From a bacterium (GTDB lineage Bacteria; Hinthialibacterota; Hinthialibacteria; Hinthialibacterales; Hinthialibacteraceae): a stretch of DNA of 64,000 nt. This document shows, piece by piece, positions 6,492 to 56,693 of this stretch. The stretch spans positions 64,001-128,000 of the forward strand of contig CAXXSM010000021.1 in assembly GCA_963663405.2 (NCBI GenBank), written 5' to 3'. The notes beneath the pieces were generated by a model. That model worked only from the letters and a program-made list of their open reading frames with translations, did no database searches and was not told where the DNA came from. A program made the translations under genes and the position numbers. Numbering within the stretch: position 1 is the stretch's first letter; every line of letters starts with the position of its first letter.

Positions 6492-7904
6492 ATGAACGCG
6501 CGAATTTTACTTGTTGAAGACGACCAGCGGTACGCCGCCCGGTTGAAAAAGAATCTGGCTTTGGAAGGCTATGACGTGATCCTGGCGTCTTCCGGCGAGG
6601 AGGGGATCGAACTGTATGGCCGCGAACCGGTCGATTTAGTATTGTCGGATATTAAAATGCCGGGCATGAGCGGGATGGATCTGCTCAAACAGATCGGCGC
6701 CCAACACGATGGGGGGGAGCATGAAGTTCCCGTCGTATTGCTGACCTCCGTGGATACAGCCCGCATGGCGGTCGAAGCGATGAAAGCGGGCGCGGCGGAT
6801 TACATCACGAAAGACGCCGACCGGGTGGAAATCCTGCTGCGGATTGAAAAAGTCCTGGCGGAAGCGCGGATCCGCGCGGAGAACCGCCTCCTGCGCAGCC
6901 GTATCCAAGATGTCGGAGAATTTGGACGCACAATTGCTGAAGATCCGAAATCGATTACATTGCTTCAAGAAATTGACACCATCGCCGATTCAGGCGCGAA
7001 TATTTTAATTATCGGTGAAACCGGTGTGGGGAAGGAATTGATAGCCCGCTGCGTGCATCAAAAAAGCCCCCGGTCCGATAAACCGTTCATCGATCAAAAC
7101 TGCGCCGCCATCCCCACAGACAACCTTTTTCAATCTGAGATCTTCGGCCATGAAAAAGGCGCGTTTACCGGCGCCATCAACCGCAAACTGGGAAAGTTGG
7201 AACTGGCCGATGGCGGAATTCTCTTTCTCGATGAAATCGGTGACATGCCGCTGGAAAGCCAAGGTAAAATCCTGCGCGCCTTGGAGACACAAGAATTCGA
7301 ACGGGTGGGGGGAACGCGCAAAATCCGCGTTGATATTGCGATCATCGCGGCGACGAATAAAGACCTGCAATTCGAAGTGCGGGAAGGCCGGTTCCGGCAG
7401 GATCTCTTGTACCGGCTCGATATTATCCGGCTGCAAATCCCCTCCTTGCGGGAACGGCCGGGGGATATCATCGCCTTGGCAAATCATTTCCTGGACCAAT
7501 ATACGCGCAAATACCGGCGTCCCCTGCCTGTGATTACAGAGGAAGCCCGCGCGTTTTTTGAGCGTTACCCCTGGCCGGGCAATGTCCGGGAATTGAAAAA
7601 TTTCATCGAACGTATTGTGATCCGGAACCGGGATTGTGAAGCGATCGATCCAGCGCTGCTGCAGCGGGAAGGGCTTTCATTAGAGAACGGCGCATTACTC
7701 TCTACTGGAGGAACAGAGGTGGAGGATGAGATGCCATCGCTGGAAGAGATCGAACGCCGCGCTATCGTCGCCGCGCTGGAAAAAGCAAATTGGGTGCAAA
7801 GCGAAGCGGCAAGAATGCTCGATATTTCCCCCGATCGTATGCACGCGCGCGTAAAAAAATATAAACTGCAGCATCCATCATGGCGCGCGCGAAAAGCGAA
7901 ATAG
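6492..7904 (+). CDS. NtrC-family sigma54-dependent response regulator
   Basis: Receiver (LVEDD, DIKMPG), AAA+ GETGVGKE, GAFTGA, FLDEIGD, WPGNVREL, C-terminal Fis-type HTH. Confidence 0.95.
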   Translation: MNARILLVEDDQRYAARLKKNLALEGYDVILASSGEEGIELYGREPVDLVLSDIKMPGMSGMDLLKQIGAQHDGGEHEVPVVLLTSVDTARMAVEAMKAGAADYITKDADRVEILLRIEKVLAEARIRAENRLLRSRIQDVGEFGRTIAEDPKSITLLQEIDTIADSGANILIIGETGVGKELIARCVHQKSPRSDKPFIDQNCAAIPTDNLFQSEIFGHEKGAFTGAINRKLGKLELADGGILFLDEIGDMPLESQGKILRALETQEFERVGGTRKIRVDIAIIAATNKDLQFEVREGRFRQDLLYRLDIIRLQIPSLRERPGDIIALANHFLDQYTRKYRRPLPVITEEARAFFERYPWPGNVRELKNFIERIVIRNRDCEAIDPALLQREGLSLENGALLSTGGTEVEDEMPSLEEIERRAIVAALEKANWVQSEAARMLDISPDRMHARVKKYKLQHPSWRARKAK

Positions 7905-7918
7905 ATAGGGGAGTAGTT

Positions 7919-8530
7919 ATGAAAAAACGTGGATTTACCTTAATTGAACTGTTAATCGTTGTTGCGATCATTGGTATCTTGGCGGCGATCGCTGTGCCAA
8001 ATTTTCTCAATGCGCAAGTGCGCGCCAAATTATCCCGCGTCATGGCTGATATGAGAAACCTCAGCACGGCGATCGAAATGTACAGCTTCGATAATGGCCG
8101 CTCGCCGGTTGGTTCACTCGAAGGAGTCTCCTTAGGTTTGTGGACATCTGAAATGCGGAGGGCGTTGAAACAATTGACCACCCCCGTTTCCTACATCGCT
8201 GCGCTGCCCAACGATCCATTCATGACGACCCAATACGGCACGTTGGAATCGGACACCGACCGGCGATGCTTTACATACAATTCTATGGAAAATCCCAATT
8301 GGCGGGCGGGGAATTACCAATACGCGTATGATGTGGGATTCACATGGTACATGTTCTCTCCCGGTCCCAGCAATTCCTACGGCGCCCCCTGGCCCGATTA
8401 TCTTCTGGCCGCCAACAATCCCAGCTACAGCGGTCAACCGGACAATCCTACAGACAGGGTCTTCGAAACCAGCAACGGCCTTACATCCGATGGGTGGATT
8501 ATCCGGTCAAATAAAGGCGCGTATCCTTGA
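7919..8530 (+). CDS. Type IV pilin/GspG-like prepilin
   Basis: MKKRG/FTLIELLIVVAIIGILAAIAVPNF class III signal; GGGGAG RBS before ATG 7919. Confidence 0.92.
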   Translation: MKKRGFTLIELLIVVAIIGILAAIAVPNFLNAQVRAKLSRVMADMRNLSTAIEMYSFDNGRSPVGSLEGVSLGLWTSEMRRALKQLTTPVSYIAALPNDPFMTTQYGTLESDTDRRCFTYNSMENPNWRAGNYQYAYDVGFTWYMFSPGPSNSYGAPWPDYLLAANNPSYSGQPDNPTDRVFETSNGLTSDGWIIRSNKGAYP

Positions 8531-8590: not shown

Positions 8591-9277
8591 TTACAGGTTA
8601 TCGGAAGGAACAAAGCCGTTGAATTCACCCCGGAAGACACCGAAATCGCCATCACTGGCAACGCCATTTGTAGGACTGAAAATAACGACAGGTTGAAGGG
8701 CGGTTTCTCCGTACACACTGTACAATCGGCGGCGGATTTGGAGTTGTGTTGTATTGGGAAGCGGATAAAGGCTAAGCAGGGAATCACTTCGATCTGGTCC
8801 AATGCTGTAAACGCCGATCCCTTGATAACGGGAAAAGTCATCGCCGAGAAAGTCTGGATAGTGGACGTAGATAAACCCATGTTTTGAATCGGTATTCGAT
8901 GAACTGAGGCTGAACGATTCCCCCAGCTCCGATTCAATCTGTTCTGAAATCGAGACGCGTTGGAAAGGATCAGGGACGTTGGTGTCCTGAATATACATGC
9001 CATTGTAGGATAATGGTTCAAGATCGAGACGGGTGTCGTAATAAATGCTGTGTGGATAATAGCCCCGGTCTTGCTGGAAAAGCTGGGCGGCGTTGGCGAA
9101 TTCAACAAGCGTCTGCTTGGCTGCGGTAATCGTTGCCCGGGTCTTCATCTCTAACAACTGCGGAATCGCGATGCCGGATAAAATACCAATCACCGCCAGC
9201 ACGGTTATCAACTCACCTAGAGTGAAACCACGCTCGCAATTTTTATAGTTTGTAACATTCACCATCACAATCCGCAT
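8591..9277 (-). CDS. Type IV pilin/GspG-like prepilin
   Basis: ERG/FTLGELITVLAVIGILSGIAIP; shares DPF, SIGPD and TNGVASDG motifs with the paralogs at 7919 and 56671; exact start uncertain. Confidence 0.8.
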   Translation of the reverse strand: MRIVMVNVTNYKNCERGFTLGELITVLAVIGILSGIAIPQLLEMKTRATITAAKQTLVEFANAAQLFQQDRGYYPHSIYYDTRLDLEPLSYNGMYIQDTNVPDPFQRVSISEQIESELGESFSLSSSNTDSKHGFIYVHYPDFLGDDFSRYQGIGVYSIGPDRSDSLLSLYPLPNTTQLQIRRRLYSVYGETALQPVVIFSPTNGVASDGDFGVFRGEFNGFVPSDNL

Positions 9278-9415: not shown

Positions 9416-10105
9416 GTGAGGGAAATCAGGTTGATAGATATGGTCGTCGTATCGAATGAACGTATCGCCTCTTCGAAAAGGACGGGCCGGAGTGGATCGC
9501 CTGCCAGCTCGTCCGTAGAGAATATCAACACCGAATCTTTATTATTGCGGGTAAAGGATGGAGATTCTGTCGCGGTGAAAATTCTTTTTGATCGCTATTA
9601 CTTCCAAGTGATCGGATTCATCCGCCGATTTGTCGATGAGTCAGACGTGGAAGATGTAGCCCAGGAGGTTTTCATGAGTGTCTTTCAACGAATGAACAAA
9701 ATCCAGAATCCCTCCGCGTTTGAAGGTTATCTCTTCCGGTCGGCGAAAAACCGCAGCGTCAACTGGCTACGGAAAAAACACCGCCTGCGCGAACTTGTTC
9801 AATTGGTCATCTATGCGGCGAACACGTGGAAGGAAAATACCGGTTCCAACGAAACGGCCCGGCTGGACGCAGTCAATAATCTAATCGAATCGCTGCCAGC
9901 CGAAACTCGAAGATATATCGATCTATTCTACTTACGGAAACAATCACGTGCGGAAATCGCGTCCCAGCTCAACCAATCGCCTTCTACCGTCTATCGGCGG
10001 ATCGCCGAAGCGAGAGCGGCTCTCCTCGAACACGCGCGTTCGAATAATATACAGATTTCTTTTGATGGGCGGCATGGGCTGACCCTAAATGGAATTGAGG
10101 CGTGA
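9416..10105 (+). CDS. ECF-family RNA polymerase sigma factor
   Basis: Region 2 EDVAQEVF...FEGYLFRSAKN; region 4 HTH SRAEIASQLNQSPSTVYRRIAEAR; start could be the downstream ATG (MVVV). Confidence 0.87.
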   Translation: MREIRLIDMVVVSNERIASSKRTGRSGSPASSSVENINTESLLLRVKDGDSVAVKILFDRYYFQVIGFIRRFVDESDVEDVAQEVFMSVFQRMNKIQNPSAFEGYLFRSAKNRSVNWLRKKHRLRELVQLVIYAANTWKENTGSNETARLDAVNNLIESLPAETRRYIDLFYLRKQSRAEIASQLNQSPSTVYRRIAEARAALLEHARSNNIQISFDGRHGLTLNGIEA

Positions 10106-11019
10106 TTATGAATACGAAACCATTCCTGTCCAGTGAACAACTCGCCATGTATCAGGATGGGCTTCTCCCGGAAGAGGACCGGAAGCGGGTTGAAACGCTG
10201 CTGGAGTCAGATCCAGAAACGCAAAACCGTCTGCATGAATTGGAACAATTGGATGAAACCCTTGTCGAATGGGGGCGCCGAAACCGGATGCGCGAGGCGG
10301 TGGCGCGGAACGTGCGATTGAATCGAAGCCACGCGCGCCAAGAGAAACAAACTTGGTTCGTGCTTTCTTCCCCTATGGTCTCCATTGGTTGGGCCGCTGT
10401 CTTCGCCTGCCTATTCACGATTTGGTGGTGGGCTCCATTTTCGTCCCATCCTCCTAAGATTGTCGTGATAGGCGCCGTGGAATGGACAAGAACAGATGGC
10501 GGCGCTGTTGAAGATATACCTCGGATTGGAGATCGTATCCATGTCGAGAAGGGATATCTCGCTCTTCAGATGGGGGATCGCAGTTCCATTCTGGAAGTCG
10601 GAGCCGATTCCCAAGCGCAACTGTTAGGCCCCCGTCATCTCCGGGTGGATCAAGGCGCTGTCTGCAATACTGTAAGCAAAGATCCAAAACATCCCTATAT
10701 AGTGGTTACGCCACACGGTACCGTCCAGGTTCTCGGTACTGTTTTCACTGTCGAGGTCACCGAAGAAAAAACCGTCGTTCAAGTAAACGAAGGGAGGGTC
10801 CGTCTGGTTCCTAATAATCAAAAGACGTCCGATCAAGATATTATTAACGCAGGTTACGCAGCGGATCTCTGCGTGGATCGTGTATCGAAACCACGCAAAT
10901 TTAACCGGACCGAATTTAATCAGTATGTAGCCAAGTCATATAAAATGGCGATCAAACAAGGCGGAATGGACACAAAGGGCATGGCGTCAACGCTAAAGAA
11001 AACCAGCGTGTCTCATTAG
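10102..11019 (+). CDS. FecR-domain anti-sigma factor
   Basis: N-terminal anti-sigma-like helix, one TM, FecR signature VVTPHGTVQVLGTVFTV...VQVNEGRV; overlaps sigma stop by 4 nt. Confidence 0.82.
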   Translation: MIMNTKPFLSSEQLAMYQDGLLPEEDRKRVETLLESDPETQNRLHELEQLDETLVEWGRRNRMREAVARNVRLNRSHARQEKQTWFVLSSPMVSIGWAAVFACLFTIWWWAPFSSHPPKIVVIGAVEWTRTDGGAVEDIPRIGDRIHVEKGYLALQMGDRSSILEVGADSQAQLLGPRHLRVDQGAVCNTVSKDPKHPYIVVTPHGTVQVLGTVFTVEVTEEKTVVQVNEGRVRLVPNNQKTSDQDIINAGYAADLCVDRVSKPRKFNRTEFNQYVAKSYKMAIKQGGMDTKGMASTLKKTSVSH

Positions 11020-11037: not shown

Positions 11038-13548
11038 ATGGTGGACAGACTTCGAATATCCGGCATCCGGCCGCTGCTCTTGACGGCGGTCATTGCGTCC
11101 CTCATCGCGTCTACAGCCTGCCCCGAACCTCCCACTGTCCAATCCATTCGTTCCTGGACAGGTTTGGAAAATTTAGTCACGGGTATGATTCTCGAACCGG
11201 ACGGCTCGTTGCTTATCTTGGAAAACGATTCCGGTGAATTAACCCGTTTGCATTTGGGCCGGAATAATACATTGCGTCAAATCGAGACCGTGGCTAAAGG
11301 TTTCGAAGATCCCATCGCCCTTGCCCGGACAGATGGCGGCAAATTACTCATCGCGGAACGTACGTCCGGCCGAATTATCTATTTGGATAATACTATTAGA
11401 AGTGTTGTTTATAGAGGATTGGAAGACATTTCCTCTATCCGCTTAGACGCGAACGGATTTCTCTGGGTGACGGAACTCGAACCGGGCCGCCTTTCGCGGA
11501 TCAATCTGATTACCGGTGTGAATCGGCTCATTGCGGAAGGATTGAATTTCCCCAGCGACGTGATCCCTTTGTCCAATGCGCTGGTTGTGTCGGAAATGGT
11601 CGATAACGCCGGTTCGCTTGGAAGGATCACGAACAGCGCTCTAACGCCCATCACTGATGCGGAACTCGTTTCAGGGGAACAACTCATCGGCGTGAACGCG
11701 ATTTCATTATCGTCCATATCTTCTATCACACTGTCCTCAACGATACAAAGCCAGTCCAGTTTAATGGGCGCGGTTACAAACACATCAGTTATCGATCCGG
11801 TCCGTATGGCTGTCGATCCGCGCAATTCAAATCACATCTTTGTCAGTGTACGCTATCTTGAGACAACAAATTCCGTAACAGCGGCTTCTTCCAGCGGGGC
11901 GGTTCTCATAATGGATCGGACCAAAGGAACGATCCTTCGAACTTTCGCGGATGATTTGTATGGTCCGACGGATATTATTCCTGTAAATACTGGAATTTAC
12001 GTGCTGGAAGAACAAGCCGAACGCATCACATTCATCCGGTGGAACGGAAACCGGACGATCATCTGGGATGGACTGGGAACGCCTTCCCGGATTTCAGTCA
12101 CCAACCGATATGGGCTGAATATTCTTGTAACCAGTCAAACACCCAGCGCCCGGCTCCGGCGAATCCGCACGGATGGAACGATCGGTTATTCCTCAGAGGA
12201 AACTCCGCTTCGCGCGAAGGTTGGAGGATTTCTTGAACGGAGCGATGGTTCGCTTCTGATTTCCTTCCCCGCTTTTGGCGCGATCTATTCTTTAAGCTGG
12301 GGCGCAGACGCGGAAATATTTTCGCTGGAAGTATTTTCGCCAACTCGACTGCGGTTGTCTCCCAACGACACAGTCTGGGCGCTCGATCCGATTATGAACG
12401 AAATTCTTCATCTTAATCTCGCTGGACAGATCCTGGGACGGTATCCTGGAAAGGAGTACCAGCTGAACGATTTCGATCTGGAGTGGCCGGAGGAAGATTC
12501 GGATCTAAGCGCGGATTTCATTACTGGCGCGGTTACGGAACGAGCGCTCTATGCGCTGGACAATATAAATGGGCATCTCCTAGTTTATAATCGTGAGACG
12601 GGCGCGTTTGAGCCGATTTACAATCGATCGGACAACACACTCGCATCCTCTGATCGTGTTTTTGTACGAATTCCATCGCGGGGATTCGTCACCGCGCAAA
12701 ATAGTGGACTGGGATATATTCATTGGATTGACGATGATGGCACAGTCACCAAATTGGCGGATGGATTCGATGGGATCACAGACCTGGCTTGGCTTGAGGG
12801 ATGGGGCGTCTTCGCGCTTTCTGAAAATGGCTGGGTTCGATCTCTAAATCTCTCCTTTTCCGATGAAACAGTTGATCAAACAGCCACGTCAACACCCACG
12901 CCCGATACTGGGACCATCGAACCAACGGTGATACCCTCTCGAAATACACCTATTCCGGTAGAAGAGAGTCCAATTCCCATCGATAATCTAAACACTTCCA
13001 CTCCTACACCAACAAATACATCGGCTCCAACACCGACATCGACCGCTACGCCGACACCGACATCAACTTCAACACCAACACTTACATCGACCCTAGTTCC
13101 GACATCAACATCCACGCAGGTACCAACAGCAACGGAAACAGCGGCGCCTACATCTACACCAACGCCGGTTCCCACAACGACAGAGACACCGGCTCCAACA
13201 TCTACGGCAACGCCGGTTCCCACAGCGACAGAGACACCGGCTCCAACATCTACGGCAACACCGATTCCAACAGCGACAGAGACACCGGCTCCAACATCTA
13301 CGGCAACACCGATTCCAACAGCGACAGAGACACCGGCTCCAACATCTACGGCAACACCGATTCCAACAGCGACAGAGACACCGGCTCCAACATCTACGGC
13401 AACGCCGGTTCCTACAGCGACAGAAACGCTAACGCCGACATCTACACCAACGCCGATTCCAACAGCAACACCCACTCCAACATTTACAGCGACGCCTACT
13501 CCTACATCTTTAATTGACACACCCGTCCTTGATTGGCGCCTTCATTAA
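11038..13548 (+). CDS. Secreted NHL/SMP-30-like beta-propeller protein with Thr/Pro linker and C-terminal TPVLDWRLH motif
   Basis: Signal peptide; repeated blade motifs ([24 protein letters not shown]); long PT-rich tail. Confidence 0.8.
13120..13455 (+). repeat. 48-bp coding tandem repeat, 7 units of (V/I)[15 protein letters not shown]
   Basis: Unit ccgattccaacagcgacagagacaccggctccaacatctacggcaaca at 13261 and again at 13309; divergent flanking units. Confidence 0.95.
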
Positions 13549-14054: not shown

Positions 14055-14939
14055 ATGAATCGAGGATTGTTAGTCAAACGAGCCGTATGGGTAATGGGAA
14101 TCGTGATGGTCCTTTCGTGCGTGGGGATGGCGTTGCCCGCCACCTCCCAGATTCTGACATTGGGAAACAACAATAGCGCTGCAAATGGAAACATACGTGT
14201 CATCGGCGCCGGTCAGAGCAACCAAGTTAGAACCGGTCTTATCGGAACCACGGATGACGATGAGGAACTCATTTCCATCGATGGCGTTGGTATTCCCGTC
14301 TCACTAATTGATGAATTGATTGGCGAAGATGGGGATATTGACGAACTGCCGGAAGTCACTGAAAACAATCTCCGCCGTTGGTATCGCTGGTGCTGTCGTT
14401 GCTGCTGCTGGTGTTTACCGTGCCGTTGTTTGAAACCCAGAATGATGGGCGTTCTGACCTCTGTCTCCGAGGATGAAGTCACACTGATCAATGGCTTGGT
14501 CACCGTCGATATCTCCGAAGCGAAAATCTACTTCCCCCCCTGGCGCCGCGCTCTAGAGGTGGATGAAACAGAGGAAGAGGTTGAACCCACCCTCCAAGTG
14601 GGTGACCGGGTGAAAATTTTTGGAACGACTTCAGAAGAAGGCGATTTTATAGCGAAATGGGTCGTGGTTGTTCCTCCTCTCGGAGAAGGGATAATCGCCG
14701 GCCGGTTGGAAGAATACTATCCTGACGCGGGCGTCTTTGGCGCCGCGGGTCAAAAAATCATCTTCGACGATGAAACCATCATCGTGTACAGGATGAGACG
14801 CGTTCAGGCGGCGGATGTCGATTGGACACGGAGAATCTGCGTCCGCGCTCATGTCGAATCCCTCACTCCAGAAGATTCGGGTATACTGCGCGCGATCTTT
14901 ATCGTAGTCAAATTCTTACCCGATCCAGTAGAGCCGTAA
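14055..14939 (+). CDS. Secreted DUF5666-like (OB-fold repeat) protein with a poly-Cys motif
   Basis: GAGGAG RBS, signal peptide, LQVGDRVKIFG...IAKWVVV repeat type, internal WCCRCCCWCLPCRC. Confidence 0.7.
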   Translation: MNRGLLVKRAVWVMGIVMVLSCVGMALPATSQILTLGNNNSAANGNIRVIGAGQSNQVRTGLIGTTDDDEELISIDGVGIPVSLIDELIGEDGDIDELPEVTENNLRRWYRWCCRCCCWCLPCRCLKPRMMGVLTSVSEDEVTLINGLVTVDISEAKIYFPPWRRALEVDETEEEVEPTLQVGDRVKIFGTTSEEGDFIAKWVVVVPPLGEGIIAGRLEEYYPDAGVFGAAGQKIIFDDETIIVYRMRRVQAADVDWTRRICVRAHVESLTPEDSGILRAIFIVVKFLPDPVEP

Positions 14940-17613: not shown

Positions 17614-17848
17614 TTTCAATTCCCGGCGTTCTGTCAATTCATACATTCAATTCAAAAAAACAATAATTCTCTACTTCCCGCATTACGAACCAATCAAATC
17701 CTTTCGACAATTCTTTACAACTTTTTTGCCAGGAAAAATTTATTAATGATATATTGTCTGCGTCATTATCTCTTCTTTGTATAATTTATGTTTAGGGCCG
17801 CACAGCCCTTGGTGGAAAATAATCAATCAGTGTGTTTGGAGAAGGTTT

Positions 17849-20446
17849 ATGAGTCTCGACCAGTCTCATTTTCGTTATTTCCCATTCTATAGAACCCACT
17901 CATCAGGCAATAAACAAAATACTTCCTGGACATCCCCTCATGTCCTCATTGGAATACTCATCATCCTTGTTGGATTACTGGCGCCACAAATCAGTCATGC
18001 GGAGAAGACGCTTCTTGGGATCGGCCCGGTTAAATCCGTCGCGTTCTCTCCCGATGGGCGATATGTGGCCACCGCTGGGGATATTGGTGTGATCGTGTGG
18101 GATATCAGCAGCGGCGCCGCGATCCTGATTCATTGGTACAAGGACCACACGGGCGCCGTTCGATCCGTCGCGTTTTCTCCTGACAGTACGAAATTGGTCA
18201 CTGGCAGTGTGGATACGACGGCGATTATCTGGGATCTCGAAGGGGGAGTGGATACCGTTTTTGAGGGACATTCCGCCTGGGTATTATCAGCTGTCTTTTC
18301 CCCCGATGGCGCAACGATCCTAACTGCGGGACTTGATAACGCCGCCCGTGTCTATGATCCAGAGGCGGATGAACAGACGCTGGTCATTCGTGACCGGTTT
18401 ACCGACTTTCTCACGGCGGTTTTTTCTCCCAATGCGAGTAGCATTTTAACCGGTGGACGGAACGGCCGGGTTGTTTTATGGGATCCGGCCAATGGATTGG
18501 AACTCCTCGCGTTTGAAGGTCATACAGGGGATGTCCCATCAGCCGCCTTCTCCCCCAATGGCAGATGGATCATTACGGGCAGCATGGATGGCACGGCGAA
18601 AATCTGGCAGGTTTCGGATGGCTCCGAGCTGTTTTCTCTCACCGAACACAATGGTGGAGTGCCCGCCGTCGCGTTCTCTCCCGATAACGCTTATGTGTTG
18701 ACAGGCGGGGAAGATGGAACCGCCATTCTCTGGGACGTGGAAACGGGGGAATCGATCCGAGTTTTTGAAGGTCATTCTCAACCCATTCGATCTGTCGCAT
18801 TTTCCCCGGATGGTTTGAAAGTACTAACTGGAAGTGATGATGAAACCGCCCGGCTTTGGGATATCTCCGATCTTTATCCAGCCCCGGAAGCCGAAGTGTC
18901 CATCGGTGGAGGCGCCTATGGCGCCCAATCCGGCGCGTATGTTCCCATCGATATTCGAATCGATAATTTGCAAAGCACGCGGACGATCAGTTTTGAATTG
19001 GGCTTCGATTCCGAATTGTTAGAATATGCCGGTGAGGTTTCTATCGTAGAAACCATGTTGACATCCTGGGCGCTGGCGGACGCGTACGAAATCGCGCCGG
19101 GTACGGTCCGCGTATCGGCGGCGGCGCTTGGAGGAGCGGCGGTCAACGGAAGTGGCACATTAATGACGATTCTCTTTAAGGTCAAAGATGAGATCGCAGG
19201 CGGCCGGTACACTTCGATTACCTTCAACCGATTGTTTGACAATTTGACCACAGTCACGCCGTTGGATATCGCTGTGCCAATCGGCTTGAAGGGAGATGTG
19301 GATGGGAGCGGTTATGTGACGGCCGCGGATGTACAGATGACATTCGAGATTTCTCTCGGCCGGTTTCTTCCATCCGTCTATCAACAATGGGCGGGGGAAT
19401 TTACGAGTGATGGAGTGATCACCGCTCTTGATGTGCAGCGGGTTTTCCAAGCCTCACTTGGACGCGACACGGAGTACAGCGCGAAACGGATCGTATCCGG
19501 CCGCAGTGTGCTAACGCCGGTGCTCAAGATCGATGATGTGACGGCTCTGCCCGGTGAAGAGATCTCCATTCCTGTGACCATTGAACCAAATTCCCGTGTT
19601 GCGGCGTTTTTGATCGATTTGCAATACGACATCTCTCGTCTTGTTTTCAATGGGATCGATAAAGAAGGCATGTTAACCGAAGAATTTGGATTCACGGAAG
19701 CGTATGAAAAATCGCCTGGCTCGATCCGGATTTCCGCCGCCGCTCTCGACGCCGCGCCGATTCGAAATGTTGGTACGCTGTTCAATCTAAAATTTACGGT
19801 GAATGAAGCCGCTTTCGGCGCCGCGTCCGTATGGATTCAGGCCCTTGCCGATGACTTGGCGGAAGCGTCGGCGATTGATGGTTTGGTCACAATCAAGGCC
19901 GGGGAAGATCTAGAACCAGACACTCCAGGAGATTCGTTCGATCCGTATATCATCTACCCATTTGATTCGGAAAGCGAGTACATCGAAATCCCCGGAGGCT
20001 GGACCCAAGCGCCGGCCGGTTCGGTCACACTCGGTGAGATCCCCTGGCAGATGTCTGATTACACCGACGGCTTCGGAGCCATCATTACAACCGGGCCGGG
20101 CGAGGTGGAAATATTGCAATTCCCAGAAATCGATGCGGGGGATTCGATGGTTCTTATACAAATATCCATTTATTCAGACAGGGAAACCAGTGTCACTTTA
20201 GCGGCGATAGACGGCGCGATGGACGGCTCCCACATCGCCAACACTCCCGCCTACACCGCCCTCAATCCAAACCAGTACACCCGCCTGTCGATTACATACG
20301 ATCCCCCCGGAACGACGGTCATCCCCATCCTCCAAACCGCCAATCCAACGGGTATCGATACCGCCAAAACCTACATTGACAACCTGAAAATCTATCTCCT
20401 CCCCAAAACCGCGTTAATTCCTGTGTCCCTTTTGTATGGTGAATAA
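17849..20446 (+). CDS. Secreted WD40 + cohesin + dockerin + cohesin multidomain protein
   Basis: Canonical GH..V.SVAFSPDG...WD repeats; duplicated dockerin loops GDVDGSGYVTAAD / EFTSDGVITALD; two cohesin-like domains (V.I.ID...L.FD..L...GTL..L.F.V). Confidence 0.85.
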   Translation: MSLDQSHFRYFPFYRTHSSGNKQNTSWTSPHVLIGILIILVGLLAPQISHAEKTLLGIGPVKSVAFSPDGRYVATAGDIGVIVWDISSGAAILIHWYKDHTGAVRSVAFSPDSTKLVTGSVDTTAIIWDLEGGVDTVFEGHSAWVLSAVFSPDGATILTAGLDNAARVYDPEADEQTLVIRDRFTDFLTAVFSPNASSILTGGRNGRVVLWDPANGLELLAFEGHTGDVPSAAFSPNGRWIITGSMDGTAKIWQVSDGSELFSLTEHNGGVPAVAFSPDNAYVLTGGEDGTAILWDVETGESIRVFEGHSQPIRSVAFSPDGLKVLTGSDDETARLWDISDLYPAPEAEVSIGGGAYGAQSGAYVPIDIRIDNLQSTRTISFELGFDSELLEYAGEVSIVETMLTSWALADAYEIAPGTVRVSAAALGGAAVNGSGTLMTILFKVKDEIAGGRYTSITFNRLFDNLTTVTPLDIAVPIGLKGDVDGSGYVTAADVQMTFEISLGRFLPSVYQQWAGEFTSDGVITALDVQRVFQASLGRDTEYSAKRIVSGRSVLTPVLKIDDVTALPGEEISIPVTIEPNSRVAAFLIDLQYDISRLVFNGIDKEGMLTEEFGFTEAYEKSPGSIRISAAALDAAPIRNVGTLFNLKFTVNEAAFGAASVWIQALADDLAEASAIDGLVTIKAGEDLEPDTPGDSFDPYIIYPFDSESEYIEIPGGWTQAPAGSVTLGEIPWQMSDYTDGFGAIITTGPGEVEILQFPEIDAGDSMVLIQISIYSDRETSVTLAAIDGAMDGSHIANTPAYTALNPNQYTRLSITYDPPGTTVIPILQTANPTGIDTAKTYIDNLKIYLLPKTALIPVSLLYGE

Positions 20447-24807: not shown

Positions 24808-25845
24808 TTATTCGTATAAGGACGCGTCCTTTGTGGAGGCTTGGATGTCGCTGATGTCCCAGAGGTGGACATTGTCACCATGTAAGATCATCAGATATTT
24901 TCCATTCTTTGAGAAAGAGTGTTGATGTGAACCTCCTGGAGGAAACGTTCTTACAATTGTCCATGAATCAAATTGAACAAGAGCCATTTCAAAATTTATT
25001 ACTAAAAGCAAGTACTTACCGTTTGGTGAAAATGTTCCACCAATACAAATATTGTCATCGTTTACATTAAAAACGCGCTTTCGTTCTTTATCATCCGCGT
25101 TCCAGACTTCAAACACAGTCACGCGTGTTGATGAATCTGGCCAATCTACACGCATACTAATTATATTCTTTTCATCTGGTGCAACGATCACACCTCTTTC
25201 AAAGAAAGACAATAACTCTCCGCTAAAAGCATCATATATGTAACCATTTTGATTGGAATTTACATATATTCTTCGATTGTCTTGCAAAAAAACAGCGGAA
25301 TTTAAAAGGAAATCATCTGATATTATATTGGCAATTGTATTCGTTTTGATATCCAATATAAAAATTGAATTTTCCTTATTGTCATGCAATATCATTCCGA
25401 TAAGAAGAGAGTTACCATTAGGAGAGAAACTGATGGTAGAAGATTCTGAATTAAAATCAATATTTGTCGCTTCTAATTTGAATGTATTGACAATCGAACC
25501 GTCTTTAACATCCCAGACTGTGACAACCGCCCTATTATCACAAGCGGCGACAAGGCGGCTATCTTCAGAAAATCGGATTCCAACAATAACCATGAGTGGA
25601 TCATTGTCGGTGGGTAAAGACCGTACAATTTCACCTGTCGAAGTGTCATACAAATTGACGTTCCCTTTGGAGGATAATACTATTAACGAACCATCGGGCG
25701 CCAAATCAGCGCGGCAAAACTTTGTATCAGCTTGGATATTTAACAAAGGTTCTTCCTGCGCCTGCGCTAAACTTACAAATATGCATATGCCAATACTAAG
25801 TATGATAGTTTTTTGAATTTTGTGATAATGTCTTTTCGTTTTCAT
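24808..25845 (-). CDS. Secreted WD40 beta-propeller protein
   Basis: Signal peptide (AQA/QEE), FSPNG/FSEDS blades, ends LWDISDIQASTKDASLYE; close paralog of 27136..28167. Confidence 0.85.
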   Translation of the reverse strand: MKTKRHYHKIQKTIILSIGICIFVSLAQAQEEPLLNIQADTKFCRADLAPDGSLIVLSSKGNVNLYDTSTGEIVRSLPTDNDPLMVIVGIRFSEDSRLVAACDNRAVVTVWDVKDGSIVNTFKLEATNIDFNSESSTISFSPNGNSLLIGMILHDNKENSIFILDIKTNTIANIISDDFLLNSAVFLQDNRRIYVNSNQNGYIYDAFSGELLSFFERGVIVAPDEKNIISMRVDWPDSSTRVTVFEVWNADDKERKRVFNVNDDNICIGGTFSPNGKYLLLVINFEMALVQFDSWTIVRTFPPGGSHQHSFSKNGKYLMILHGDNVHLWDISDIQASTKDASLYE

Positions 25846-25900
25846 GATAGACCGTTTGAGTATGTTAATCTGTAGTTCAAATATATTCGTTGTTTTGAGA

Positions 25901-25938
25901 CCCAGCGCGGAATGGCTGGGGGGCGATTCCGCGCTGGG
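25901..25938. repeat. 38-nt GC hairpin copy 2
   Basis: Identical to 24738-24775; no U-tract. Confidence 0.85.
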
Positions 25939-25950
25939 GGGAGGTGGTTC

Positions 25951-27030
25951 TTACTGATACACTTGAGAATCGGGGACTGAGGTGACTAGATCGCTGATAT
26001 CCCAGATGTGGATCGTGTTCCCGTTGACGGTCAGGAAGCGTTTTCCATCGGGGAAGAACTTGACGATGTAATCCGCAGTGGTTGGCGAATTTTTCTCACT
26101 CGCGCGTTCGATTGAGTACGAGCGCAGAGAATCCCCTGTGTCCGCATTGTAGATTACACGCTCGGACATTGTGTTCTTTTCTTCGTTTATAACACCAGGG
26201 ATAAGCACTGTTTTACCATCAGGGGATAACGCCACCGTCTCTGTTTTACCTGCTGTATGCGGTAAGGTATGTATGATTTCCCCGGTTTCAAAATCCCATA
26301 AGCGAACATTCCATCCACCAACAGTAATTATCTTCTTCCAATCGCTTGAAGGTGATGATGCATCACCAAAAAAAACTATACCTGTCAATTCATCATCTTC
26401 TAAATCTAATATTGATGTACCACCACCTTCAACAATCAACACTTCTCTTCCATTTGGTAAAAACGTCAGAGAAGTTATCCAACTACGTTCCTTATATCTT
26501 CGTATTTCTTCTCCCGTCTTGACATCCCACATTTGCAGATAGCCGTTGACATCGCCTGTTAGCACTCTCTGACTATCAGGGGAAAAGGCAATACCGAGTA
26601 TCCCGGCTACAAGTGTTTTTCCCCGGCTGGGATCGCTGACCGTCCCACTTTCCAGGGTATGAATTAACGCCCCTGTCTCTACATCCCATAATTTCGCCTC
26701 AAACGCATCCGAGCCAGTCATGACATATTTTCCATCCGGAGAGAAGGCAGAACTGTAGATTAAACCTCGTTTTCCTTCTAGAAAAACAAGTTCTCTTCCC
26801 GTTTTCGCATCAAAGATGTGAGCATTAGAAAAATCAGCCCCTAAAATTTTCTCTCCATCGGGAGAGATGGATACTGTGCTAAGCGTGTACGGGTTTTCAG
26901 CTTCGAGATTTACAATAGGAATTGATAGAATCGGCTGTTCTTGTCCCGATACAGGCAAAGACAAGAAAATCATTGCGAAAAGTGGAATTGCACAATACGT
27001 TTGGTTGAGATTAGACATTTTCTTATTCAC
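25951..27030 (-). CDS. Secreted WD40 beta-propeller protein
   Basis: SAFSPDGKYVMTGS...KLWDVETG repeats; ends IWDISDLVTSVPDSQVYQ. Confidence 0.87.
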   Translation of the reverse strand: MNKKMSNLNQTYCAIPLFAMIFLSLPVSGQEQPILSIPIVNLEAENPYTLSTVSISPDGEKILGADFSNAHIFDAKTGRELVFLEGKRGLIYSSAFSPDGKYVMTGSDAFEAKLWDVETGALIHTLESGTVSDPSRGKTLVAGILGIAFSPDSQRVLTGDVNGYLQMWDVKTGEEIRRYKERSWITSLTFLPNGREVLIVEGGGTSILDLEDDELTGIVFFGDASSPSSDWKKIITVGGWNVRLWDFETGEIIHTLPHTAGKTETVALSPDGKTVLIPGVINEEKNTMSERVIYNADTGDSLRSYSIERASEKNSPTTADYIVKFFPDGKRFLTVNGNTIHIWDISDLVTSVPDSQVYQ

Positions 27031-27066
27031 TTTGTTTTCATGATTGATCTTTTTCTTATTTCAAGT

Positions 27067-27104
27067 CCCAGCGCGGAACGGCTGGGGGGCGATTCCGCGC
27101 TGGG
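27067..27104. repeat. 38-nt GC hairpin copy 3
   Basis: One substitution relative to copies 1 and 2; no U-tract. Confidence 0.85.
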
Positions 27105-27135
27105 GGGGTGGTTCCTTTCTCTTTTTAGTGAATTG

Positions 27136-28167
27136 TTATTCGTATAAGGACGCATCCTTTGTTGAGGCTTCAATATCGCTGATATCCCACAGTTTAACGT
27201 TATCACCTAGAAAGATCATCAGATATTTTCCATCCTTTGAGAAAGAGTGTTGATGTGAACCACCTGGAGGAAACGTTCTTACAATTGTCCATGAATCAAA
27301 TTGAACAAGAGCCATTTCAAAATTTATTACCAAAAGCAAGTACTTACCGTTTGGTGAAAATGTTCCACCAAGAAAAATATTATCATAGTTTACATCAAAA
27401 ACGCGCGTTCGTTCTTTATCATCCACGTTCCAGACTTCAAACTCAGTCAAACCTGTCTCTGCATCTAGCCAACGCATACTAATAACAGTTTTTTCATCTG
27501 GCGTAATGATCACACCTCTTTCAAAGAAAGACAATAACTCTCCGCTAAAAGCATCATATATGTAACCATTTTGCCTTGAATTAACATAAATTCTTCGATT
27601 GTCTTGCAAAAAAACAGCGGAATTTAAAAGGAAATTATCTGATAATTTATTGGCGATTGTATCCGTTTTGATATCCAATATAAAAATAGAATTTTCCTTA
27701 TTATCATGCAATACAATTCCGACAAGAAGAGAGTTACCATTTGGAGAGAAACTGATGGAAGCATATTCTGAATTAACATCAATATTTGGCGCTTCTAATT
27801 TGAATGTATTGACAATCGAACCGTCTTTAACATCCCATACTGTGACAACCGCCCTATTATCACAAGCGGCGACAAGGCGGCTATCTTCGGAAAATCGGAT
27901 TCCAACAATGTCCATGAGTGGATCATTATCGATGGGTAAAGACCGTACAATTTCACCCGTCGAAGTGTCATACAAATTAATGTTCCCTTTGGAGGACAAT
28001 ACAATTAACGAACCATCAGGCGCCAAATCAGCGCGGCAGAACTTTGAGTCAGCTTGGATATTTAACAAAGGTTCTTCCTGCGCCTGCGCGAAACATCCGC
28101 ATATACAACAGACGATACTGAGTATGATAGTTTTTTGGATTTTGTGATTAAATCTTTTTGTTTTCAT
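27136..28167 (-). CDS. Secreted WD40 beta-propeller protein
   Basis: GGAG RBS; long identical stretches with 24808..25845; ends LWDISDIEASTKDASLYE. Confidence 0.85.
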   Translation of the reverse strand: MKTKRFNHKIQKTIILSIVCCICGCFAQAQEEPLLNIQADSKFCRADLAPDGSLIVLSSKGNINLYDTSTGEIVRSLPIDNDPLMDIVGIRFSEDSRLVAACDNRAVVTVWDVKDGSIVNTFKLEAPNIDVNSEYASISFSPNGNSLLVGIVLHDNKENSIFILDIKTDTIANKLSDNFLLNSAVFLQDNRRIYVNSRQNGYIYDAFSGELLSFFERGVIITPDEKTVISMRWLDAETGLTEFEVWNVDDKERTRVFDVNYDNIFLGGTFSPNGKYLLLVINFEMALVQFDSWTIVRTFPPGGSHQHSFSKDGKYLMIFLGDNVKLWDISDIEASTKDASLYE

Positions 28168-55886: not shown

Positions 55887-56693
55887 ATGAAGGTTTCGTC
55901 TATCTATTTCATTCTCGTTTCGGTTCTGTTCCTTGTCTCTTCGGCGAATGGGCAAGAGATTACGCCGATCGGCGATATTAACGCCGTCGATGAGGAAGGG
56001 AACGCTATTTTCGCAGGGCTTCAGACCATGGATCAATATACGATCGAAGGAATTGCGTTAAACGATCCAGGGATCTACTGGGGCGGAGAAGGGGAGAGGA
56101 GTGATTTTATTCTATACGTTCAGGATGATACGGGCGGCATTCAGGTTTACTCGGGGGGATGGTATGGTGGTGGAATTGAGAGTTATGCGGACACACCGGT
56201 CCAGCAGGGGGATCGTGTCCGCGTAACCGGATTGACAGGAAGTTATGGTGGCAAGACCAATGTGAATGAACGCCATAATCCCGATCAGAAGTTTGTGATT
56301 GAAAACCTTGGATACGTTGGCGATCCCGAACCGTTGATTATTGAAGATCTGACCGCCGCTTCGCAGTTTGATTCCACCCGGCAAACCGGAGGTGAATACT
56401 ATCAAGGCCGTCTGGTAAAATTAATGAACGTGCAGATCGTCGATGGGGAATGGGGAAGCGGCGCGATGTTGACTGTTGCGGATTCAATGGGGGGAACATT
56501 CCCCGTTGAACTACGCGCTTCGACGGGTATCGGCGACTATCCCGCGCCGGAAGGAACCTTCGATGTTGTGGGCGTATTCAACCAAGAAGATGAGGAAGCG
56601 CCTTATATCGATAACTATTTACTCTGGCCGCGCTCGATTGAAGACTTTGGTTTGGAGGCCAGTTCCGCTGATGATTGGGATCTGTACAAATAG
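55887..56693 (+). CDS. Secreted tandem OB-fold protein with C-terminal SSADDWDLYK motif
   Basis: AGGAG RBS, signal peptide; YVQDDTGGIQVY, VQQGDRVRVTG, EYYQGRLVKL, LWPRSIED. Confidence 0.8.
   Translation: MKVSSIYFILVSVLFLVSSANGQEITPIGDINAVDEEGNAIFAGLQTMDQYTIEGIALNDPGIYWGGEGERSDFILYVQDDTGGIQVYSGGWYGGGIESYADTPVQQGDRVRVTGLTGSYGGKTNVNERHNPDQKFVIENLGYVGDPEPLIIEDLTAASQFDSTRQTGGEYYQGRLVKLMNVQIVDGEWGSGAMLTVADSMGGTFPVELRASTGIGDYPAPEGTFDVVGVFNQEDEEAPYIDNYLLWPRSIEDFGLEASSADDWDLYK

Follow-up and report, generated by a model that had tools for sequence, protein, structure and literature searches.

The C-terminal domain of the type IX secretion system (T9SS CTD; type A, TIGR04183 / PF18962) closes many unrelated signal-peptide proteins, among them enzymes, adhesins, LRR and propeller proteins; it is found in some lineages only, tens to hundreds of times per genome, and in all this it resembles the C-terminal tag described here. 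The T9SS CTD, which serves to carry proteins across the outer membrane and to attach them to the surface, folds as a beta-sandwich of 70–100 residues, whereas this tag has 9 residues, is unstructured in a structure model and is not matched by Pfam or NCBIfam models (0 of 14 tagged 40-residue tails at E ≤ 10); a TIGR04183 search gave 0 matches in the source genome and likewise in 0 of 14 control genomes. The tripartite signals (LPXTG/sortase, PEP-CTERM/exosortase, GlyGly-CTERM/rhombosortase and MYXO-CTERM) are also short C-terminal signatures on many exported proteins of a lineage, paralogous or not, but in these the signature must be followed by a transmembrane helix and a basic cluster, whereas this tag ends 0–2 residues from the terminus. 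A regular-expression search of the source genome identified no PEP-CTERM tails, its 3 matches all lacking a transmembrane helix. These comparisons agree with an earlier note on this DNA, which had set PEP-CTERM, LPXTG, GlyGly-CTERM and the T9SS CTD aside given that the tails have neither a transmembrane helix nor a folded domain.

Dockerins resemble the tag in being C-terminal docking modules on diverse secreted enzymes. A dockerin is a calcium-binding fold of ~60–70 residues; the tag, in contrast, has no duplicated calcium-binding loop (D-x-N/D-x-D-G...), and none of the 16 proteins of the source genome that have a dockerin-like motif within 90 residues of the C terminus is tagged (0/16). The beta-signal of outer-membrane proteins (BAM) shares with the tag an aromatic last residue, hydrophobic residues just before it and the extreme C-terminal position; however, the tag carriers are soluble enzymes and repeat proteins rather than beta-barrels, and one additional charged residue can follow. 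The hydrophobic positions of the tag do not alternate, and neither W at −4 nor D/N at −5 is known to belong to the beta-signal consensus. The NCBIfam models NF053834 (ultrashort_CTERM) and NF050076 (sort_motif_YLP) are 10–11-position models of very short sorting motifs, but each matches 3 places in the source genome (E 0.3–3.6; one match falls in a frame of 17 codons, the other two in long frames of contig C109) as compared with 208 tagged genes, and controls match in 10–11 of 14 genomes; these models do not describe the tag. We found no description of such a tag in the literature on Sumerlaeota, Hinthialibacter and ultrashort C-terminal sorting, and the words "C-terminal" and "sorting" are absent from the main article texts of PMC9324843 and PMC8092238. 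The nine-residue tail is probably a previously undescribed address or docking label.

The window, a stretch of 64,000 nucleotides from the source genome, a member of the Hinthialibacterota, encodes five proteins whose tails the earlier note had aligned as one motif. Translation confirms that the five tails are present as written, and all five proteins are positive for a signal peptide by our rough heuristic. The first carrier (carrier 1) and its locus comprise the following features:

7880..8530, plus strand: GspG-like pilin/pseudopilin paralogue, three genes upstream of carrier 1 (N_methyl motif; family fam0, 134 paralogues; context only)
8591..9277, minus strand: second GspG-like pilin paralogue, two genes upstream of carrier 1 (fam0 membership; context only)
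9416..10105, plus strand: ECF sigma factor, upstream of carrier 1 (Pfam Sigma70_r2, Sigma70_r4_2, Sigma70_ECF)
10102..11019, plus strand: FecR-type anti-sigma, directly upstream of carrier 1 (Pfam FecR)
11038..13548, plus strand: carrier 1, composed of a signal peptide, ~600 aa of unassigned beta-rich sequence, a Thr/Pro stalk of ~215 aa and the tag (no Pfam family at E ≤ 0.01)
12870..13510, plus strand: Thr/Pro-rich repetitive stalk preceding the tag (from sequence; limits approximate)
13519..13548, plus strand: canonical tag TPVLDWRLH and stop, forming the very end of the 836-aa protein (translation; PSSM 21.1; DNA pattern match at C21:77525-77548)

Judging from their Pfam families and the gene order, the ECF sigma factor and the FecR-type anti-sigma (9416..11019) are probable regulators of the carrier 1 gene. 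Residues 611–836 of carrier 1 give low-complexity matches. The stalk that had been described before the motif is present but not typical: carrier 1 alone among 203 tagged proteins has at least 55% P/T/S/G over the 60 residues before the tag. Of the three folds that had been assigned to the five proteins, the two OB folds (55887..56693) and the WD40 fold (the trio discussed below) stand, whereas the NHL fold of carrier 1 is unconfirmed given its lack of a Pfam family.

The genome-wide census covered the 6,869 predicted proteins of the source genome, with gene calls and a signal-peptide test that are our own rough heuristics. The expression W.[LVIMF][YHFW]$ describes the end of 152 proteins, whose last residue is Y, F or H; these tails seeded a PSSM that reaches a maximum of 6.3 over 30,000 internal 9-mers. 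At a PSSM score of at least 8 the tag is borne by 208 of the 6,869 proteins (~3%), at the exact end in 167, with one further residue (E, K, D, Q or R in most cases) in 37 and with two in 4. Its consensus is [T/V/S]-[P/S/A]-V-x-[D/N]-W-x-[L/V/I/M]-[Y/F/H]-COOH, at times followed by one polar residue. The 9 conserved positions extend back to −9 and include V at −7 and D/N at −5; the hydrophobic ones (−7, −4, −2 and −1) show no alternation. Residue −4 is W in 198 of the 208 members and Y or F in 9, a W share that is partly built in given that the seed expression requires W. An unbiased position test identified W at −4 as the most enriched non-charged residue over the last 12 positions, and an unbiased residue-pair test of signal-peptide versus other proteins ranked V-7/W-4, W-4/L-2 and W-4/Y-1 at the top (p 1e-17 to 1e-20). 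C termini matching DW.[LVIM][YH]$ number 27 versus 0.17 expected from the internal rate (56 in 2,286,455 positions). The core of the earlier consensus, D[WAS].[LV][YH].?$, matches 28 of the 6,869 proteins, and since 23 of these 28 have W, the signal is the W motif.

Three of the five flagged tails, all on WD40 proteins, are not members:

24808..25845, minus strand: WD40 protein, tail ASTKDASLYE (PSSM 3.5)
25951..27030, minus strand: WD40 protein, tail TSVPDSQVYQ (PSSM 10.8, S at −4)
27136..28167, minus strand: WD40 protein, recent duplicate of 24808..25845 with the same tail (PSSM 3.5; copies 86% identical)

The 25951..27030 protein is the only sequence scoring at least 8 that has no aromatic residue at −4, and its closest relatives (in 6 other genomes) and two paralogues in the source genome have non-tag tails with PSSM scores below 0. 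Tails of WD40 paralogues in the source genome range from canonical to W-less. We considered the trio as decayed tags and rejected this reading given that its closest relatives elsewhere are untagged; the trio is not counted. The earlier note had recognized the 24808 and 27136 genes as recent duplicates, which their identity and shared tail bear out, and had counted four independent instances. Judged by PSSM and by the tails of relatives, only two of the five tails (11038..13548 and 55887..56693) are real instances, and the gap-free five-way alignment finds no support; its consensus was too loose.

Lack of enrichment among signal-peptide proteins genome-wide had been preset as one outcome that would speak against a sorting tag. 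The enrichment is instead strong: by our rough heuristic a signal peptide is present in 163 of 208 tagged proteins versus 2,170 of 6,661 others (odds ratio 7.5, Fisher p = 1.9e-40) and in 143 of the 164 tagged proteins of at least 300 aa; the heuristic finds none in 45 of the 208, 15 of which are shorter than 250 aa, and some of these have clearly mis-called starts. The Pfam families in 59 representative carriers include CotH+LTD, CBM9, LamG, LRR, WD40, NHL/SGL, beta-helix, FG-GAP, sulfatase, FGE, esterase, GH5, peptidases C1 and S8, cohesin and PPC/PKD; 30 of the 59 have no Pfam family at 1e-8, and no outer-membrane-protein family was found among them. Carriers are acidic (net charge −0.09 per residue vs −0.014), K/R is depleted in the 20 residues preceding the tag (0.057 vs 0.111), and 5 of the 208 are lipoprotein-like. 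In most carriers the tag directly follows a domain without a linker, an arrangement less typical of a surface tether. One tagged protein (L111) bears a cohesin; anchoring scaffoldins have their cell-surface anchor at the place where this protein has the tag.

The second carrier in the window is an OB-fold protein:

55887..56693, plus strand: carrier 2, exported double-OB-fold protein, DUF5689-like (Pfam; AlphaFold2; Foldseek)
56661..56693, plus strand: tag SSADDWDLY, one extra residue K and stop (PSSM 17.0 at offset 1)

The AlphaFold2 model of carrier 2 has a mean pLDDT of 93.6, with at least 95 in the core and 63 in the last block, and residues 257–268 form no strand. In this model the tag is a flexible appendage off the folded domain, and the second preset outcome against the tag, a tail that folds as the closing strand of its domain, was not seen. 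Foldseek matches the model to tandem OB-fold DNA binders. Orthologues occur in 26 of 35 Hinthialibacterota genomes, and all orthologues with complete ends (26/26) keep W-x-x-[Y/F/L] with at most two extra residues (23 score at least 8) at identities down to 31%; the tag is kept while the sequence immediately before it drifts. Distant homologues (~340 aa) mostly have a dockerin-like module at the place of the tag, and three have PEP-CTERM there.

These data bear directly on the reading that there is no signal, the tails arising by chance, through paralogue ancestry or as the closing strand of each domain. The WD40 trio, one paralogous family with non-tag tails, conforms to it, and among the carrier groups the two largest comprise 47 and 27 proteins. 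However, with tails removed the tagged proteins fall into 83 unrelated blastp groups (52 singletons), the excess is more than 100-fold and restricted to the terminus, the tail is unstructured in the carrier 2 model and in carrier 1 comes after ~215 residues of disordered stalk, and a DNA version of the tag pattern has 62 matches in the source genome versus 2 for the reversed control. We regard this reading as extremely improbable overall: the counts refute it for the W motif, and it holds for the WD40 trio only.

The same DNA pattern has 5–55 matches in 32 of 34 other Hinthialibacterota genomes versus 0–4 in controls, and 35 of 75 Sumerlaeota genomes have at least 5 matches to the strict pattern; a looser pattern gave no excess over the control. 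Over all species genomes a stricter pattern identified 71 loci. Of those from MAGs labelled Omnitrophota, Hinthialibacteria or Sumerlaeota or left unlabelled, 53 of 56 close an open frame of at least 100 codons, as compared with 1 of 15 from other named taxa. A single match in viral contigs, in a 10-codon frame, was dismissed as chance. The tag is found across Hinthialibacterota and in Sumerlaeota, and hardly anywhere else. The earlier proposal of a C-terminal tag that is restricted to a lineage and shared by signal-peptide proteins from many unrelated families is borne out. We rejected the Sumerlaeota without a strict match as a tag-free clade given that OB orthologues there still end in ...RWNLYR and ...SDWRLYE; two such genomes (G049 and G050) have 9 and 13 matches with one extra codon versus 0 and 1 in controls. 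Since there is no clean tag-negative set, we set phylogenetic profiling for a reader aside.

On balance we favor, as reasonably likely, that the tail is an address or docking tag on Sec-exported cargo that is used after export and read by a putative dedicated protein. We posit that a carrier would be exported by Sec and then fold, that the putative reader would recognize its tail while in the periplasm or at the outer membrane, and that the reader would pass the cargo across the outer membrane or hold it at the cell surface, the tag working like a minimal dockerin or a T9SS-type C-terminal signal. The importance of a near-terminal position suggests edge-strand pairing or a binding pocket with one closed end; given that one extra charged residue is tolerated, strict recognition of a free carboxylate is not suggested. 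We are more cautious about a broader proposal, which we consider possible but doubtful, that the tail is the address of a new route across or onto the outer membrane in both candidate phyla that selects folded periplasmic proteins; its reader would be a new machine, or else a T2SS-like apparatus that recognizes a simple peptide, unlike known T2SSs.

A narrower version of such a route, in which a type II secretion/pseudopilus apparatus would recognize the tail as a linear secretion signal, with the many GspG-like pilin paralogues as adaptors, draws on gene neighborhoods. The source genome has 144 pilin-like genes, 134 of them in fam0, and 8 secretin matches. A pilin-like gene lies at most one gene away from 27 of 208 tagged versus 89 of 2,058 untagged signal-peptide genes (Fisher p = 2.5e-6) and at most two genes away from 38 of 208 versus 165 of 2,058, although the p-values for pilin neighbors overstate the effect given that paralogues are not independent. 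Several pilin-then-tagged pairs share a strand with gaps of 5–160 nt, and two pilin-like genes precede carrier 1, at distances of three and two genes. Against this, about four-fifths of tagged genes lack any pilin-like neighbor up to two genes away. The earlier note had placed two carriers in pilin-containing loci; within the window, however, only the carrier 1 locus has pilin-like genes nearby, the OB locus having none. In Sumerlaeota a pilin-like gene lies within two genes at 3 of 20 tag loci, and five genomes of that phylum have 32–68 pilin matches irrespective of whether they have no strict-pattern match (two genomes) or 8–39 (three). PVC phyla also have expanded pilin families, yet the tag was not seen there in a genome-wide scan. 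No PDZ-bearing GspC-like gene was found beside a secretin among the 9 PDZ proteins and 8 secretin matches of the source genome. A co-fold of the co-oriented pilin-like protein P0094 with its tagged neighbor P0095 gave a score of 0.01 (mark 0.34) and has no bearing on binding. Type II secretion substrates have no known defining sequence feature. A pilin/T2SS reader had been suggested for the tag; the modest enrichment of pilin-like genes stands, but given that the evidence is confined to neighborhoods the link is otherwise weak, and we consider this reading unlikely.

The extreme C-terminal position of the tail, whose aromatic last residue is preceded by a hydrophobic one, also raises the idea that it is a ligand of periplasmic PDZ proteases (S41 C-terminal processing peptidases or HtrA/DegP-type) and thus a signal for processing, maturation, turnover or stress sensing. 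PDZ domains of DegS, DegP and Prc/Ctp bind such C-terminal ends, and the source genome encodes PDZ-bearing proteases (4 HtrA-type, 2 S41 Ctp-type and one M56-S41 fusion); its 9 PDZ proteins are ordinary HtrA, S41 and M61 types. However, one or two additional residues, mostly charged, come after the tag in 41 of the 208 cases, and the canonical PDZ pocket has no room for them. Conserved positions extend back to −9. Moreover, PDZ protease families are near-universal whereas the tag is confined to two phyla, and a phylum-wide degradation tag on ~200 unrelated enzymes is hard to explain. We give this idea little credence.

We give still less to the absence of any protein reader, with the aromatic tail instead adhering to the outer membrane, lipopolysaccharide, a capsule or S-layer glycan or other tails. 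This would be consistent with W, Y/F and L/V within nine residues on very acidic cargo, with the position of the carrier 1 tag at the end of a long Thr/Pro stalk and with the lack of a dedicated reader gene in the neighborhoods; beyond pilin-like genes and regulators, our search identified no family common to the source genome and the 20 Sumerlaeota tag loci. In contrast, the strict spacing, the conserved V at −7 and D/N at −5 and the placement at most two residues from the end point to a shaped binding site rather than to general stickiness, and nine residues seem few for lipid or glycan binding. A tag read by a dedicated protein remains the reading that we prefer.

How folded proteins are selected for passage across, or display on, the outer membrane is understood in few systems, and for type II secretion it is still unsettled. 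If our reading is true, a nine-residue tag with a near-invariant W, carried by ~200 unrelated cargos in each genome, would provide an unusually simple handle on folded-protein selection, one that can be synthesized, fused to reporters and used as bait for the reader. It can also be converted at once into an annotation model, and it marks, from sequence alone, the likely exported set (glycoside hydrolases, sulfatases, proteases and lectin-like proteins) of two uncultured phyla.

As chance background we analyzed the whole assembly of G000, the source genome of the window (8.44 Mb, 170 contigs, 82% complete), in which our own dicodon model called 6,869 proteins that account for 84% of the DNA. 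The core pattern of an earlier note, D[WAS].[LV][YH].?$, ends 28 of these proteins, of which 23 have W; the signal thus lies in a tryptophan motif. The pattern DW.[LVIM][YH]$ occurs at 27 C termini against 0.17 expected from the internal rate, and 152 proteins end in W.[LVIMF][YHFW]$. Residue counts at each position of these 152 tails give the consensus [T/V/S]-[P/S/A]-V-x-[D/N]-W-x-[L/V/I]-[Y/F/H], hereafter the tag.

Residue counts by tag position in the 152 tails
Position -9: T 73, V 38, S 23
Position -8: P 35, S 34, A 28
Position -7: V 109, I 24
Position -5: D 41, N 33
Position -4: W 152, demanded by the seed pattern
Position -2: L 94, V 26, I 20
Position -1: Y 91, F 31, H 29

Independently of the seed, W at -4 is the top enriched non-charged residue (2.6-fold) in the last 12 positions of all G000 proteins, and a test of all residue pairs in the last nine positions, signal-peptide versus other proteins, ranks V-7/W-4, W-4/L-2, and W-4/Y-1 highest (p from 1e-17 to 1e-20). 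A PSSM built on the 152 tails, with a cut-off of 8 (null maximum 6.3 among 30,000 internal 9-mers), identifies 208 tagged proteins: 167 end exactly at the tag, 37 carry a single residue beyond it (usually E, K, D, Q, or R) and 4 carry two; position -4 is W in 198 and Y or F in 9. That a further charged residue is tolerated speaks against a PDZ-type mechanism that reads the terminal carboxylate strictly.

Removal of the W tag brought to light a second shared C-terminal module of ~24 residues, VNLLE[IV]PYW.Y.E...LGIV.DC[QSLP]-COOH, which ends ~12 signal-peptide proteins of at least six blast families, among them LRR proteins and a 2,904-aa protein, on contigs that include C55, C27, C111, C149, C4, C132, C130, and C110, all outside the window.

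The five tails that had been proposed to share one motif are all present in the window as written, and this observation is partly confirmed:

11038..13548 (+), carrier 1: tail TPVLDWRLH, tag and stop codon at 13519..13548, PSSM 21.1, member
55887..56693 (+), carrier 2, the OB protein: tail SSADDWDLYK, PSSM 17.0 with one extra K, member
25951..27030 (-), WD40 protein: tail TSVPDSQVYQ, PSSM 10.8, not a member
24808..25845 (-) and 27136..28167 (-), WD40 proteins: tail ASTKDASLYE, PSSM 3.5, not members

Above the cut-off, only the 25951 protein lacks an aromatic residue at -4; its nearest relatives in six other genomes of the family, like its two G000 paralogues, have non-tag ends that score below 0. 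We therefore reject the WD40 trio as tag carriers and regard it as a single paralogous family that has a tail of its own; the window thus contains two true carriers. WD40 paralogues in G000 have tails ranging from canonical (..VENWDLYDK, ..VAVDDYMLY) to W-less. Within the trio (24808..28167, -), the outer two WD40 genes are 86% identical and the one between them has diverged (23% identity): a tandem duplication has recently taken place around an older paralogue.

The expected enrichment of the motif in signal-peptide proteins genome-wide holds for the W tag: a simple heuristic, which marks 34% of all G000 proteins and therefore over-calls, flags 163 of 208 tagged proteins versus 2,170 of 6,661 untagged ones (odds ratio 7.5, p = 1.9e-40), and 143 of the 164 tagged proteins at least 300 aa long. 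Some of the 45 tagged proteins without a signal peptide are clearly mis-called starts or fragments. With tails stripped, the 208 carriers form 83 blastp groups, including 52 singletons; the biggest have 47 and 27 members. Carriers are acidic (net charge per residue -0.09 vs -0.014) and rarely lipoproteins (5/208). A Pfam scan of 59 of 60 representative carriers found CotH+LTD, CBM9, LamG, LRR, WD40, NHL/SGL, beta-helix, FG-GAP, cohesin, and PPC/PKD families together with enzymes (sulfatase, FGE-sulfatase, esterase, GH5, and peptidases C1 and S8), and no family at 1e-8 in 30 of the 59. The omitted representative, carrier 1, was scanned separately and matches no Pfam family at E <= 0.01, leaving its earlier assignment as NHL unconfirmed. 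Its Thr/Pro stalk, previously taken as an expected feature of an anchor or handle, is an exception, such a linker occurring in 1 of 203 tagged proteins. An antisense 214-codon open frame within this repeat (12876..13520, -) is most likely an artefact of repeat composition.

The "OB folds" assigned to the 55887 protein are backed by an AlphaFold2 model (55-sequence alignment) and by Foldseek matches to tandem OB-fold DNA binders. The model has a mean pLDDT of 93.6, with 95 or more in the core and 63 in the last block (residues 261-268), and residues 257-268 contain no strand; in carrier 1, ~215 residues of low-complexity stalk precede the tag. Folding of the motif as a closing strand, which would have refuted the sorting signal, is therefore not seen.

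None of the 208 tagged proteins has a transmembrane helix or basic tail after the motif, so tripartite sorting signals, which have both, do not fit, as the earlier note had held. Searches of 14 tails against Pfam and NCBIfam models gave no match at E <= 10. The NCBIfam ultrashort-motif models NF053834 (ultrashort_CTERM) and NF050076 (sort_motif_YLP) matched only three places in G000, none of which corresponds to a gene called as tagged; most controls also match. In distant homologues of the OB protein other modules sit where the tag does: a dockerin-like module in homologues of ~340 aa, one named Sedimentisphaerales, and PEP-CTERM in three others. These homologues show the tag position to be one where lineages exchange surface-sorting or docking modules. 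We did not find the tag described in the literature searched, which included two genome papers covered by term look-up; it is real, and undescribed in the libraries and papers covered.

A separate 889-aa protein in the window (17777..20446, +) combines a WD40 propeller, two cohesin domains, and motifs resembling dockerin, but is untagged. This protein and a cohesin protein at another locus that does carry the tag (L111) hint at a cohesin-dockerin surface system in the phylum.

The DNA pattern GTNNNNRAYTGGNNNNTNYWYTRR has 62 matches in G000 versus 2 with the reversed control, and 5-55 matches in 32 of 34 other Hinthialibacterota genomes (controls 0-4); the low counts are G001 (1) and G027 (3). 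OB orthologues occur in 26 of 35 Hinthialibacterota genomes, G027 included. W-x-x-[Y/F/L], followed by at most two more residues, is retained in each of the 26 whose end is complete, and 23 reach the PSSM cut-off of 8, at identities as low as 31%. Sources name the nearest homologues of the OB protein Candidatus Hinthialibacter or Candidatus Omnitrophota, and we take the phylum to be Hinthialibacterota. A stricter pattern, run on every species genome, gives 71 loci: 9 titled Omnitrophota or Hinthialibacteria, 14 titled Sumerlaeota, 33 titled only "bacterium", and 15 from other named taxa. It closes an open frame of at least 100 codons at 53 of 56 loci in the first three categories versus 1 of 15 in other taxa. 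That one (L024, ..NTTVDNWPLY), in a record labelled Gemmatimonadaceae, ends a frame of at least 309 codons and could reflect chance or a stray carrier. Among 75 Sumerlaeota genomes the strict pattern has five or more matches in 35 and none or one in 26. We reject the view that the pattern-poor genomes are tag-free, their OB orthologues still ending ...RWNLYR and ...SDWRLYE. Some Sumerlaeota clades (G044, G045, G049, G050, and G056) favour a form with one extra residue, ..W-E-[LIV]-[YF]-E or ..W-E-L-Y-R, so the exact-end pattern misses it; the one-extra-codon version is strong in G049 and G050.

The earlier interpretation, a lineage-specific secretion or attachment tag, is partly supported. Its proposal that the pilin/T2SS-like apparatus reads the tag is weakly supported, by one fact: 27 of 208 tagged genes have a pilin-like gene no more than one gene away, versus 89 of 2,058 untagged signal-peptide genes. 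However, most tagged genes have no such neighbor, a pilin-like gene lies within two genes at only 3 of 20 tag loci in Sumerlaeota, and pilin paralogues are equally numerous in Sumerlaeota genomes regardless of pattern count. Two carriers in the window had been placed in pilin loci; this stands for carrier 1, and no other carrier is near pilin-like genes. The carrier 1 gene is directly downstream of an ECF sigma and FecR pair, and the pilin-like genes are:

7880..8530 (+), GspG-like pilin/pseudopilin paralogue
8591..9277 (-), GspG-like pilin/pseudopilin paralogue

Their family numbers 134 paralogues of ~200 aa in G000 (144 pilin-like genes in all), is modestly enriched beside tagged genes, and is similarly large in five Sumerlaeota genomes. 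Also in the window, 14055..14939 (+) encodes a 294-aa signal-peptide protein that matches no Pfam family and contains an unusual cluster of Cys, Arg, and Trp (..RRWYRWCCRCCCWCLPCRCLKPR..).

The tail is selected, position-bound, and unstructured, and is carried by exported, unrelated, acidic proteins of two phyla. We infer that it would be read after Sec export by a putative envelope protein, which would move its cargo across the outer membrane or retain it at the surface.
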